This document shows positions 4,070 to 31,821 of a DNA stretch of 64,000 nucleotides, one piece after another. Source of the stretch: Escherichia coli (GTDB lineage: Bacteria > Pseudomonadota > Gammaproteobacteria > Enterobacterales > Enterobacteriaceae); NCBI RefSeq assembly GCF_003334405.1, contig NZ_QOWM01000003.1. The stretch is one strand, 5' to 3'. Each line of letters starts with the position of its first letter. The stretch's first letter is position 1. Below the pieces are notes generated by a model. It was not told the origin of the DNA and did no database searches. It saw only the letters and a program-made list of their open reading frames with translations. The position numbers and the translations under genes are program-made.

Positions 4070-6115
4070 TTAATCGACAAAATCACCGTGCTGCCTGGCC
4101 ACCAGCGTCAGAATTGAATACAGCGCCACCGGGGTTTGATGCTGATTGAATACCTCTACAGCCCATTCCACCACACCTGTTGGTTTTTCTTCTGCGCTAC
4201 GCTGTTTTTTCAGCGTCTTGCGCTTACAGGTGAGACGCACCTGGATGGTATCGCCTGGCTTTACGGGTTCGATAAAACGCAAGCTTTCCAGCCCGTAGTT
4301 AGCAATGACCGGACCGACACCGGCATCGACAAACAGACCCGCAGCCGCAGAAAGCACAAAATACCCATGCACCACCCGCTCACCGAAAATAGATTCGGCA
4401 GCAGCAATCTTATCCATATGTGCATAGAAATGATCGCCGCTGAGGCAAGCAAAGTTAACAATATCGGCCTCTGTCATTGTGCGGCGGGGAGTCAACAGGC
4501 TGTCGCCTGGTTGTAGCTCCTCAAAATATTTGCGGAACGGATGAATACGATCTTCTTCGACTTTCGCACCGCGCACCCACTGTTTACTGATAGCGGCAAG
4601 CATCGTCGGACTACCCTGAACAGCGGTTCGCTGCATGTAATGTTTCACCGCTCGTAAACCGCCTAATTCTTCACCGCCTCCTGCGCGACCAGGCCCACCA
4701 TGTACCAGTTGTGGCAGTGGGGAGCCATGCCCGGTGGATTCTTTTGCCGACTCTTCATTGAGGATCTGAATTCGCCCATGCGTACGTGCCGCGTCGGCAA
4801 TAAACTGACGCGCAATTTGCGGATCAGCCGTCACCAGCGTTCCCGCAAGGCTACCGCCGCCTGCACAAGCCAGTTGCAGAGCATGTCGCTGGTTTTGTGC
4901 TGGCATCAGCGTTGCGACAGGGCCAAAGGCTTCTGTTGCATGTACCGCCGGTGTTTCATCCGGCTGCGGACAGTACAATAAGGTTGGCGGGAAGAAGGCA
5001 CCCGCAGCAGATAAATCCGCCTGACCACCGAGGCGAATCTCGCATCCTGCAGCCAGCAATATGTTCACTTTTTCCTGCACATCGGCACGCTGCTCAGCAT
5101 TTACCAGTGCGCCCATTTTCACGCCTTCCTGAGCAGGATCACCGACCACGACTTTCTGTAATCGCGCAACCAGAGCATCACTGACAGCATTAACCAATGC
5201 CTGCGGCACAATAATCCGCCGGATTGCCGTACATTTTTGCCCGGCTTTTGTGGTCATCTCACGCACAACTTCACGAATAAACAGCGCAAACTCCGGTTGA
5301 TCCGGGGTGACATCTTCGCCCAGTACGCAGCAGTTCAGGGAATCAGCTTCCATAGTGAAGGGGATAGATTTGGCGACGATATTTGGCTGAACTCGCAGCA
5401 TCTGTCCGGTCGCCGCTGACCCCGTGAAAGTCACCACATCCTGGCTGTCCAGATGATCCAACAAGTCGCCAGCACTACCGCAGATCAGACTAATTGCGCC
5501 TTCGGGAACAAGACCACTATCGACAATTGATTTCACCATCGCCTGAGTCAGTTGGGCCGTCGCGGTAGCTGGTTTGATGATGGCTGGCATTCCGCCCAGC
5601 CACGTTGGTGCCAGCTTTTCCAGCATTCCCCAGCAGGGGAAGTTAAAGGCGTTAATATGCACTGCCACGCCTGACTTTGAGGTCAGTAAATGGCGCGCGG
5701 CAAATCCACCTTCTTTCGATAAGGGGATCAATTCATCTTCCGGCCACAGCGTATCGTCAGGCAGCTCCCGGCTACCGAGGCTGGCGTAAGTAAATAACGT
5801 CCCAATGCCACCTTCAATATCAACCCAACTGTCTGCCCGCGTTGCGCCTGTTTGCGCAGAAAGAGCATAGAAACGCTCTTTTTCACTCAGCAGATGTTTA
5901 GCGACCGCTTTAAGCATCGCCGCACGTTCGATAAAGGTCATAGCGCGAAGGGCGGGGGCACCTTTTTCAATGGCAAACTGGCGGGCAGCCGCCATATCAA
6001 GACCTTCACTGGTCACTTCCCATAACGCCTCGCCGCTAATAGCGTGGTGAATCAAACGGCTACGGCCCCGGCCAGACTGCCAGGTACCGGATAAGAAACT
6101 GGCTAACTGCTGCAT
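4070..6115 (-). CDS. paaZ: bifunctional oxepin-CoA hydrolase / 3-oxo-5,6-dehydrosuberyl-CoA semialdehyde dehydrogenase
   Basis: 681 aa; N-terminal ALDH domain plus C-terminal MaoC-like hydratase domain; divergent from paaA. Confidence 0.9.
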
Positions 6116-6399
6116 CGCTACTCTCCAGATGTTTCACATTTCTGTTGCTAATAGTTAAATCGCGAATCATAAAAAGCAAGGGATCTTTTAACGAAATGTT
6201 AACTATGCGATCTGTATAGCAACTGCGGAAAACATTAATGCACTGATAAACAATGATTTATAAAAATAGGGTGCGAAATCCGTCACAGTTCAAACATACA
6301 AAATTTGTGATTTTACTTAACTATTGTGTAACTTTCATAAAACAATGTGATTCGTGTTTTTAATTAATTCACGAAAACTGGAATCGTAAAGGTGATGAC
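6116..6399. promoter_or_regulatory. divergent paaZ / paaA control region (Pz/Pa)
   Basis: 284-bp AT-rich intergenic region between divergent paaZ and paaA carrying PaaX-box-like inverted repeats. Confidence 0.6.
6348..6386 (+). promoter_or_regulatory. PaaX operator-like box TGATTC-N27-GAATCG just upstream of paaA
   Basis: Inverted hexamers 6348-6353 and 6381-6386; a second weaker box TGTTTC-N28-GAATCA lies at 6130-6169 on the paaZ side. Confidence 0.5.
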
Positions 6400-20800: not shown

Positions 20801-23633
20801 TACTCTGGTAGGGATGGCTGTTTATGAGCATGGTACTGCTATCAACGACCAGACGGGTGTTATCAATATCAATGTTGGTACTGGTCAGGCGTTTTATAAC
20901 GATGGCACAGGAACAATTGTTAACTATGGTACAATCTGCACTTTCGGCGTGTGCCAATCGGGGAATGAGTACAATAATACAGATGATTTCACCTCACTGA
21001 TCTATACCGGTGGCGATACGATTACACGAAGCGGAGAAACTGTAACGCTAAATAAATCTGCTGCTGTGACTGATAAGCTGGCTGGGAATGTTGTTAATAG
21101 CGGAACGCTTTCCGGTGATCAAATTACGGTATCAAGCGGTCTTCTGGAAAATACCAGCGGTGGCATCATCAATAACTTAGTAAAACTTGACAAGGGTGCC
21201 GTCATTAAAAATGCCGGGGTGATGACGAATAACGTCGATGTTAGCGGTGGAATCCTCAATAATGCCGGAGAAATGACTGCGCAAATTACCATGAATGCTG
21301 GTGCTGATAGTTCGTTAGTGAACAACACCGGAACCATCAATAAAATCGTGCAGAACGCGGGGGTATTCAATAATAGTGGCAGTGTAACAGGGCGGATGAT
21401 GTCGGCTGGCGGGGTCTTTAATAATCAAACTGACGGGGCGATTATGAGAGGTGCTGCGCTGACAGGTACTGCAGTGGCAAATAACGAAGGAACCTGGAAC
21501 CTCGGAAGTAGTAGTGAGGGTAACAACACCGGGATGCTGGAAGTTAATAATAATTCAGCTTTCAATAACCGCGGCGAGTTTATTCTTGATAACGACAAGA
21601 ATGCTGTGCACATCAACCAGTCCGGTACGCTTTATAATACCGGTCACATGAACATCAGTAATTCTTCCCACAACGGAGCCGTTAATATGTGGGGCGGAAA
21701 TGGTCGTTTTATCAATGACGGAACGATTGATGTTTCTGCGAAGTCACTGGTAGTCAGCGCTAATAATGCCGGCGATCAGAATGCCTTCTTCTGGAACCAG
21801 GATAACGGGGTCATCAACTTCGATCACGACAGCGCCAGTGCCGTGAAAGTCACCCACAGCAACTTTATTGCCCAGAATGACGGCATCATGAACATCAGCG
21901 GCACCGGTGCTGTGGCTATGGAAGGTGATAAGAACGCGCAGCTGGTTAACAATGGCACCATCAACCTCGGTACCGCAGGCACTACTGACACGGGTATGAT
22001 CGGTATGCAACTCGATGCCAACGCCACGGCGGATGCGGTAATCGAAAACAACGGCACCATCAATATCTTCGCCAATGACTCGTTTGCATTTAGCGTACTG
22101 GGTACAGTAGGTCATGTGGTTAACAACGGCACGGTGGTGATTGCCGATGGGGTTACGGGTTCTGGACTGATCAAGCAGGGCGACAGCATCAATGTTGAAG
22201 GTATGAACGGTAACAACGGTAATAGCAGCGAAGTGCATTATGGCGACTATACGTTGCCGGATGTGCCGAAGCCCAATACGGTTAGTGTAACGTCGGGAAG
22301 TGATGAGGCTGGTGGCAGCATGAACAACCTCAACGGCTATGTCGTCGGTACCAACGTTAACGGCAGCGCCGGGAAGCTGAAGGTTAACAATGCCAGCATG
22401 AACGGCGTGGAGATTAACACGGGCTTTACCGCTGGTACGGCAGACACCACTGTGAGTTTTGATAACGTAGTGGAAGGTAGCAACCTGACCGACGCTGACG
22501 CCATCACCTCAACGTCCGTGGTATGGACTGCCAAAGGCAGCACCGATGCCAGCGGTAACGTTGACGTCACCATGAGCAAAAATGCCTACACCGATGTGGC
22601 AACAGATGCCTCGGTGAATGACATCGCGAAAGCACTGGATGCGGGTTACACCAACAACGAACTGTTTACCAGCCTGAACGTCGGCACGACTGCTGAACTG
22701 AACAGTGCTCTGAAACAGGTCAGCGGTAGCCAGGCGACCACGGTATTCCGCGAAGCGCGCGTGTTAAGCAACCGCTTTAGTATGCTGGCAGATGCCGCGC
22801 CGAAAGTGGGTAACGGTCTGGCGTTCAACGTTGTCGCGAAAGGCGATCCGCGTGCCGAGTTAGGTAATAATACCGAATACGACATGCTGGCATTGCGTAA
22901 AACTATCGACCTGAGCGAAAGCCAGACGATGAGTCTGGAGTACGGTATCGCTCGTCTCGATGGTGATGGTGCGCAGAAAGCGGGTGATAATGGCGTTACA
23001 GGCGGTTATAGCCAGTTTTTTGGCCTGAAACATCAGATGTCGTTCGATAACGGCATGAACTGGAATAACGCCTTGCGTTACGACGTTCACAACCTTGACA
23101 GCAGCCGCTCGATTGCATTTGGCAACACGAACAAAACGGCTGATACCGACGTGAAACAGCAGTACCTGGAGTTCCGCAGCGAAGGGGTGAAGACTTTCGA
23201 ACCGAGCGAAGGACTGAAGGTTACGCCATATGCGGGTGTAAAACTGCGTCACACACTGGAAGGTGGCTATCAGGAGCGCAATGCCGGAGACTTTAACCTG
23301 AATATGAACAGTGGCAGCGAAACGGCGGTGGACAGCATCGTCGGGCTGAAACTGGACTACGCAGGTAAAGACGGCTGGAGCGCTAGCGCTACGCTGGAAG
23401 GCGGGCCGAACCTGAGCTACGCGAAGAGCCAGCGTACGGCAAGCCTGGCAGGCGCAGGCAGTCAGCACTTTAACGTCGATGACGGTCAGAAGGGCGGCGG
23501 CATCAATAGCCTGACAAGCGTCGGCGTGAAGTACAGCAGCAAAGAAAGTTCGCTGAATCTGGATGCGTACAACTGGAAAGAGGATGGCATCAGCGATAAA
23601 GGCGTGATGCTGAACTTCAAGAAAACGTTCTAA
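17865..23633 (+). CDS. ydbA: giant autotransporter (type Va) adhesin-like protein, uninterrupted
   Basis: 1922-aa ORF; signal peptide MQRKTLLSACIALALSGQGWA; Pro/Asp/His-rich linker; Gly/Asn/Thr-rich beta-helical passenger with tandem repeats; C-terminal beta-barrel ending ...LNFKKTF. Confidence 0.85.
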   Translation: MQRKTLLSACIALALSGQGWAADITEVETTTGEKKNTNVTCPADPGKLSPEELKRLPSECSPLVEQNLMPWLSTGAAALITALAVVELNDDDDHHHRNNSPLPPTPPDDESDDTPVPPTPGGDEIIPDDPDDTPTPPKPVSFNNDVILDKTEKTLTIRDSVFTYTENADGTISLQDSNGRKATINLWQIDEANNTVALEGVSADGATKWQYNHNGELVITGDNATVNNNGKTTVDGKDSTGTEINGNNGKVIQDGDLDVSGGGHGIDITGDSATVDNKGTMTVTDPESMGIQIDGDKAIVNNEGESTITNGGTGTQINGDDATANNNGKTTVDGKDSTGTEINGNNGKVIQDGDLDVSGGGHGIDITGDSATVDNKGTMTVTDPESIGIQIDGDQAIVNNEGESTITNGGTGTQINGNDATANNSGKTTVDGKDSTGTKIAGNIGIVNLDGSLTVTGGAHGVENIGDNGTVNNKGDIVVSDTGSIGVLINGEGATVSNTGDVNVSNEATGFSITTNSGKVSLAGSMQVGDFSTGVDLNGNNNSVTLAAKDLKVVGQKATGINVSGDANTVNITGNVLVDKDKTADNAAEYFFDPSVGINVYGSDNNVTLDGKLTVVSDSEVTSRQSNLFDGSAEKTSGLVVIGDGNTVNMNGGLELIGEKNALADGSQVTSLRTGYSYTSVIVVSGESSVYLNGDTTISGEFPLGFAGVIRVQDKALLEIGSGATLTMQDIDSFEHHGTRTPELTYADSGAKIVNKGTVEIQNLGFAFVTGENTTGINSGTISLLQNGKDPAPSPIVLLATNGGSATNAGTITGKVTEQHSVFNKYSTGTSNSFIFNNDVSSITGLVAQSNSTIINTDSGIIDLYGRGSVGMLAIADSTAENQGKITLDSMWVDANDTTAMRDIASNSAIDFGTGVGVGTDSYSGAGKNATAINQLGGVITIYNAGAGMAAYGASNTVINQGTINLEKNGNYDDSLAANTLVGMAVYEHGTAINDQTGVININVGTGQAFYNDGTGTIVNYGTICTFGVCQSGNEYNNTDDFTSLIYTGGDTITRSGETVTLNKSAAVTDKLAGNVVNSGTLSGDQITVSSGLLENTSGGIINNLVKLDKGAVIKNAGVMTNNVDVSGGILNNAGEMTAQITMNAGADSSLVNNTGTINKIVQNAGVFNNSGSVTGRMMSAGGVFNNQTDGAIMRGAALTGTAVANNEGTWNLGSSSEGNNTGMLEVNNNSAFNNRGEFILDNDKNAVHINQSGTLYNTGHMNISNSSHNGAVNMWGGNGRFINDGTIDVSAKSLVVSANNAGDQNAFFWNQDNGVINFDHDSASAVKVTHSNFIAQNDGIMNISGTGAVAMEGDKNAQLVNNGTINLGTAGTTDTGMIGMQLDANATADAVIENNGTINIFANDSFAFSVLGTVGHVVNNGTVVIADGVTGSGLIKQGDSINVEGMNGNNGNSSEVHYGDYTLPDVPKPNTVSVTSGSDEAGGSMNNLNGYVVGTNVNGSAGKLKVNNASMNGVEINTGFTAGTADTTVSFDNVVEGSNLTDADAITSTSVVWTAKGSTDASGNVDVTMSKNAYTDVATDASVNDIAKALDAGYTNNELFTSLNVGTTAELNSALKQVSGSQATTVFREARVLSNRFSMLADAAPKVGNGLAFNVVAKGDPRAELGNNTEYDMLALRKTIDLSESQTMSLEYGIARLDGDGAQKAGDNGVTGGYSQFFGLKHQMSFDNGMNWNNALRYDVHNLDSSRSIAFGNTNKTADTDVKQQYLEFRSEGVKTFEPSEGLKVTPYAGVKLRHTLEGGYQERNAGDFNLNMNSGSETAVDSIVGLKLDYAGKDGWSASATLEGGPNLSYAKSQRTASLAGAGSQHFNVDDGQKGGGINSLTSVGVKYSSKESSLNLDAYNWKEDGISDKGVMLNFKKTF
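18543..19190 (+). repeat. in-frame tandem repeat, 294-bp unit (98 aa), about 2.2 copies, inside ydbA
   Basis: Unit NNNGKTTVDGKDSTGTEINGNNGKVIQDGDLDVSGGGHGIDITGDSATVDNKGTMTVTDPES... repeats at 18543 and 18837 with near-identical DNA; partial third copy from about 19131. Confidence 0.85.

Positions 23634-28757: not shown

Positions 28758-31821
<3,064 letters not shown>

Follow-up and report, generated by a model that had tools for sequence, protein, structure and literature searches.

Putative PaaX operators and their cross-genus conservation in the phenylacetate (paa) cluster of Escherichia coli

Gene content and layout of the paa cluster

The stretch of DNA analysed here (64 kb in length, hereafter the window) contains the E. 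coli phenylacetate (paa) cluster, in which paaZ and the operon paaABCDEFGHIJK diverge from a shared intergenic region of 284 bp with a G+C content of 32% (Table 1). Profile searches identified paaZ, paaA and the repressor gene paaX with scores that were all far above the curated NCBIfam cut-offs, and 316 of the 316 residues of the window PaaX aligned with E. coli PaaX in PDB entry 8A39. No structure of a PaaX-DNA complex was present among the PDB matches to this protein. Two inverted repeats that resemble PaaX boxes occupy the paaZ-paaA intergenic region, at the promoters Pz and Pa, and a third occupies the paaK-paaX intergenic region, at Px; paaX itself is present, intact and encoded 9.6 kb downstream of the two putative operators between paaZ and paaA, within the same cluster.

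The same layout was found in the annotated K-12 derivative MC1061, in which tynA and paaZ are followed divergently by paaABCDEFGHIJK and then by paaXY. Of 5426 complete E. coli genomes, 3132 carried the 401 bases around the paaZ-paaA repeats at an identity of at least 90%, and in each case paaZ and paaA flanked them. Between the window strain and K-12 there are about two differences in these 401 bases, both outside the boxes, and MC1061 has exactly the same sequence at each of the three boxes, Pz, Pa and Px.

Two neighbouring features were recorded alongside these genes. Directly after the paaK stop codon and before the Px box, positions 15914-15958 form a very stable stem-loop (-31.2 kcal/mol, z = -6.5 against shuffles), with no run of T after the hairpin. 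This structure separates the paaA-K unit from the paaXY unit and could serve either as a terminator that lacks a U-tract or as a hairpin that stabilizes mRNA. Adjoining paaY, an uninterrupted open reading frame of 1922 aa (17865-23633) showed similarity to autotransporter adhesins (BigA-like) below the family cut-off. The corresponding K-12 gene, ydbA, is interrupted by insertion sequences, which indicates that the window strain is not K-12.

Table 1. Genes, putative PaaX operators and candidate promoter elements of the paa cluster, with positions in the window.
Feature	Position	Strand	Description
paaZ	4070-6115	-	NCBIfam TIGR02278, 1210.5 bits; controlled from Pz
Pz PaaX operator (putative)	6130..6169	-	TGATTC(6169..6164)-N28-GAAACA(6135..6130); one mismatch to the published box
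Candidate Pz -10	6151..6156	-	AACTAT, the probable -10, in the middle of the Pz operator
Candidate Pz -35	6179..6174	-	TTGCTT; conserved, 17 nt upstream of AACTAT
CRP-like site (predicted)	6272..6287		TGCGA-N6-TCACA; between the two operators; both pentamers conserved in the 45-sequence alignment
Pa PaaX operator (putative)	6348..6386	+	TGATTC-N27-GAATCG; one mismatch; ends 13 nt before the paaA GTG
paaA	6400-7329	+	NCBIfam TIGR02156, 517 bits; heads the operon paaABCDEFGHIJK, which is controlled from Pa
Candidate Px extended -10	15968..15976	+	TGcTATGAT, conserved, with TATGAT at 15971-15976 as the candidate -10 hexamer; overlaps the Px left half-site
Px PaaX operator (putative; paaXY promoter)	15973..16010	+	TGATTC-N26-GAAGCG; two mismatches; ends 2 nt before the paaX ATG
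paaX	16012-16962	+	NCBIfam TIGR02277 (PaaX), 410.9 bits against a cut-off of 264.55; repressor gene

Occurrence of PaaX-box-like repeats in the window

The initial annotation had placed a TGTTTC-N28-GAATCA repeat on the paaZ side of the divergent region and a TGATTC-N27-GAATCG repeat just upstream of paaA, and both proved exact to the base, the former consisting of TGTTTC (6130-6135), a 28-nt spacer and GAATCA (6164-6169), and the latter of TGATTC (6348-6353), a 27-nt spacer and GAATCG (6381-6386). When the Pz box is read towards paaZ, its perfect half, on the minus strand, is the upstream one and its degenerate half adjoins the paaZ ribosome-binding site. A further TGATTC hexamer had been reported upstream of paaX at 15973-15978; the hexamer is present, but rather than standing alone it forms the left half of a full, decayed box that had been overlooked, the right half of which (GAAGCG, 16005-16010) has decayed relative to the consensus. 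On its own, a TGATTC hexamer is uninformative, because the number in the window (n = 39) equals the number expected (38.75). As a caveat, all three E. coli boxes are imperfect, with mismatches at one of 12 positions in Pa (TGATTC/GAATCG), one in Pz (TGATTC/GAAACA) and two in Px (TGATTC/GAAGCG).

Exact TGATTC-N26-28-GAATCR occurred once in 64 kb, as the Pa box, against an expectation of 0.03, whilst sequences with at most one mismatch to TGATTC-N26-28-GAATCA numbered four against 0.69 +/- 0.86 expected. Two of these four fell within the 284-bp intergenic region. Amongst 20,000 dinucleotide-preserving shuffles of this region, none contained two such sites and 74 contained one; for the 100-bp spacer between paaK and paaX, 126 of 20,000 shuffles yielded a site as good as the Px box.

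The remaining two one-mismatch sequences (29798-29836 and 57671-57709) have GC-rich spacers and lie deep inside open reading frames, the first in 28758-30515, which had no NCBIfam hit, and the second in 56359-58362, which is U32-peptidase-like. With such locations and spacers, and in a number within chance, they were set aside as new PaaX targets; both are probably chance occurrences, since 0.69 sites of this kind are expected per window.

A 15-bp motif, WWTRTGATTCGYGWT, was reportedly defined inside the protected regions by Ferrandez and colleagues in 2000. This 15-mer matched only positions 6344-6358 (plus strand) and 6159-6173 (minus strand) in 64 kb, without a mismatch, although there is some circularity in the comparison, since these two sites are the ones from which the motif was originally derived.

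Conservation of the half-sites across enterobacterial genera

Related loci were obtained through a PaaX protein scan restricted to one genome per species, which returned 80 loci with PaaX proteins 73-99% identical, from Citrobacter, Enterobacter, Lelliottia, Leclercia, Klebsiella, Raoultella, Kluyvera and others, the set also extending to Pluralibacter, Trabulsiella, Yokenella, Buttiauxella, Cedecea and Rosenbergiella. Within each locus paaA and paaX were placed by tblastn, and the boxes were scored in the 58 loci that included the paaA start (Pa), the 46 with enough upstream sequence (Pz) and 78 loci for Px. The resulting cross-genus footprint is independent of the literature.

In more than 20 enterobacterial genera the half-sites were kept at fixed positions and the spacers between them diverged, with each promoter retaining a spacer length of its own (26 nt at Px, 27 or 28 nt at Pa and 28 nt at Pz). 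The Pa box, in the form [T/C]GATTC-N27/28-GAATC[A/G], was found in 58 of 58 loci, ending 13-20 nt before the paaA start, and was perfect in 49 of them; its half-sites were almost invariant, although the spacers were only 42-50% identical to each other. Read towards paaZ, the Pz box comprised an invariant TGATTC followed by exactly 28 bases in 46 of 46 loci and a distal half that was always degenerate (GTAACA in 34 loci, GAAACA in six, the window included, GAACCA in four and other variants in two). In every genus examined this distal half showed the same departure from the consensus, an A for T at position 4 (GNAACA). Because this half lies right beside the ribosome-binding site of paaZ, some of its conservation could reflect a role in translation instead of PaaX recognition. 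A whole-intergenic alignment of 45 sequences gave conservation of at least 95% at the hexamers, with a collapse in the spacers. This pattern shows that constraint on the PaaX operator falls on the two outer hexamers and the distance between them, and neither on the inner 15-bp motif nor on the bases of the spacer.

Some Pa boxes carried an additional element. In loci L022, L026, L027, L028 and L029, which represent several genera, a second GAATCA lies inside the right half of the box by one helical turn (GTGAATCAAATGGGAATCA), at about -30 to -14 from paaA, and would offer an alternative spacing of approximately N17.

At Px, 53 of 78 loci carried TGATTC-N26-GAATCA without a mismatch, placed so that it ends 2 nt before the paaX ATG, and eight more, the window included, carried a near-perfect version, so that 61 of 78 carried a box with two mismatches or fewer. 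The right half in E. coli, GAAGCG, was more decayed than that in most other genera, and the comparison shows that the autoregulatory box of E. coli is a weaker form of a site that most relatives keep without a mismatch. No Px box was found in 17 of the 78 loci, which belong to Buttiauxella, Cedecea and some others. The element TGTGCTATG was conserved before paaX in nearly all 78 loci, those without a box included, as was observed for L053-L055, L057-L060, L062, L065, L070, L072 and L080 (Buttiauxella, Cedecea and some relatives). Because this promoter-like element has been kept before paaX in the absence of a PaaX box, its distribution suggests that paaX autoregulation has been lost or moved in Buttiauxella, Cedecea and some of their relatives.

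Predicted promoter elements

Within the Pz operator, the candidate -10 hexamer AACTAT was at least 90% conserved amongst 39 distinct spacers that were otherwise 64% identical. With the elements listed in Table 1, the perfect Pz half-site would fall between the -35 and the -10, and the degenerate half would cover the first transcribed bases, beside the paaZ ribosome-binding site. On the opposite side, TTGTGA (6307-6312) could be the Pa -35 and TAACTT (6329-6334) the Pa -10, and the Pa box would then span roughly +7 to +45, on the downstream side of the polymerase footprint.

A consensus sigma-70 scan of the paaZ-paaA region called neither Pz nor Pa and returned one irrelevant hit on the minus strand, and the same scan of the paaX region did not call Px and found no -35. 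As none of the three promoters was called, we treat the promoter geometry as inferred. Consensus scans commonly miss activator-dependent promoters. CRP control of the paa promoters was reportedly described by Ferrandez and colleagues in 2000. Elsewhere in the intergenic region, conserved blocks at 6190-6212 (TTTTAA..TTAAC..TGTGATC) may be sites for other global regulators.

Identity of the repeats and alternative explanations

Every feature by which a PaaX box can be recognized in sequence was found at this locus, namely the hexamers, their spacing, their intergenic location, the presence of the regulator and conservation at orthologous positions. We therefore consider, with a probability of roughly 95%, that these repeats are the operators at which PaaX, a repressor that responds to phenylacetyl-CoA, controls Pz, Pa and Px. 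Previous studies gave TGATTC(N27)GAATCA as the sequence recognized by PaaX in E. coli (Kim et al. 2004), described negative control of Pz and Pa by this protein (Ferrandez et al. 2000), attributed its repression of Px to a steric block on RNA polymerase (Fernandez et al. 2014), and reported that PaaX is released from Pa and Pz by phenylacetyl-CoA and not by phenylacetate, and that it competes with RNA polymerase at Px and Pz and acts by a different mechanism at Pa (all in PMC9493321). Together with identity to K-12 and conservation of the half-sites, this literature (PMC9493321) supports the original proposal that PaaX represses both divergent promoters. The sequences, their non-random occurrence, their conservation and the repressor gene come from our own analysis, whilst PaaX binding, the inducer and competition with polymerase are taken from the literature; the promoter hexamers and start sites are predictions, and the correspondence with published sites was made by sequence rather than by protected limits.

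It is very improbable that the hexamers are read by another regulator, such as CRP through a TGTGA that overlaps the Pa left half, rather than by PaaX. The octamer TGTGATTC at 6346-6353 does contain this CRP half-site, and the CRP-like site at 6272-6287 is nearby, but this TGTGA depends on the T at 6346, where the consensus of other genera has a different base (AGTGATTC), and no TCACA partner follows the half-site. Furthermore, the hexamers match the published PaaX site (PMC9493321), and the same pair stands directly before paaX in 53 of 78 loci, the pattern expected of an autoregulated repressor.

We attach equally little weight to the proposal that the repeats work at the RNA level and not as operators in the DNA, forming hairpins in the leaders of paaA and paaZ that would serve attenuation or stability. 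The Pa box is probably in the transcribed leader, and in E. coli it carries an inner inverted repeat, TTCGTG/CACGAA (6351-6356 and 6370-6375); however, both leaders folded no better than shuffled sequences (z = 0.06 and -0.02), and this equality of folding energies led us to reject the proposal. Moreover, the outer arms would close a loop of 27-28 nt, the arms never covary and are merely invariant, and neither another E. coli (L002) nor other genera retain the inner repeat. For the same lack of retention, the inner repeat was rejected as the true recognition element, and it is probably under no selection.

The least credible alternative is that the repeats are functionless chance matches in an AT-rich intergenic region, since, despite the chance frequency of the single hexamer and the random near-matches inside open reading frames at 29798 and 57671, it is rejected by the shuffles, none of which held two sites, and by half-sites that stay invariant at fixed distances from paaA in 58 loci whose spacers have diverged.

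Proposed mechanism of repression by PaaX

Simple arithmetic places the inverted halves of the PaaX operators (TGATTC / GAATCA) 32-34 bp apart, centre to centre, a distance of about three helical turns that would set both on the same DNA face, where a PaaX dimer could meet the two half-sites together. When phenylacetate is not available, PaaX would occupy the Pz and Pa boxes and its own Px box and all three transcription units would be off. Activation of phenylacetate to phenylacetyl-CoA by PaaK would then release PaaX, and transcription would begin. We propose that RNA polymerase is excluded at Pz and Px, because the boxes there overlap the likely -10 elements, and these geometries would fit the reported competition with RNA polymerase. 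At Pa, the likely start site is upstream of the box and the paaA ribosome-binding site downstream of it, which would make a later step the one that is blocked; its predicted place downstream of the polymerase footprint is consistent with the different mechanism reported for this promoter.

The imperfect halves are open to a more speculative interpretation. We regard it as possible, but on balance doubtful, that the imperfections in the boxes are designed rather than the product of decay and, with the promoter-specific spacer lengths, give each promoter its own affinity for PaaX, thereby tuning repression and producing a graded derepression in which Pz responds first and Pa and Px later. To our knowledge, such a tuned imperfection has not been described. 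Two observations, the uniform departure of the Pz distal half and the decay of the right Px half in E. coli against a perfect box in most relatives, may add to what has been published, and both concern the strength of repression rather than its kind.

Overall, the finding is already known, these being textbook sites of a well-studied catabolic cluster, and it matters little beyond annotation. The cross-genus footprint nevertheless confirms computationally, and cleanly, the constraint on the outer hexamers and on their spacing; this constraint, together with the weakened Px box, could guide the design of phenylacetyl-CoA biosensors based on PaaX.

Comparison with known PaaX operators

The closest counterparts are the Pa and Pz operators of E. 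coli W and K-12 (Ferrandez, Garcia and Diaz 2000, J Biol Chem 275:12214; via PMC9493321), which share the organism, locus and sequence of the boxes described here and from which we found no difference of substance. The consensus from the pac (penicillin G acylase) promoter (Kim et al. 2004; Galan et al. 2004; via PMC9493321) has the same inverted hexamers and a 26-28 nt spacer, but the window contains no pac gene and its boxes depart from this consensus by one, one and two mismatches, with spacers of 28, 27 and 26 nt (Pz, Pa and Px, respectively). Like the Px operator described for paaXY (Fernandez, Diaz and Garcia 2014, Environ Microbiol Rep; via PMC9493321), the third box in the window stands directly before paaX and overlaps the likely -10, which would fit the reported steric exclusion of RNA polymerase. 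More distantly, the PaaX boxes reported for the sty and paa promoters of Pseudomonas sp. Y2 (del Peso-Santos et al. 2006; via PMC9493321 and PMC2770484) involve a regulator of the same family and resemble the present boxes as inverted repeats with a long spacer, in another genus and at other target promoters, a likeness drawn from their description only.
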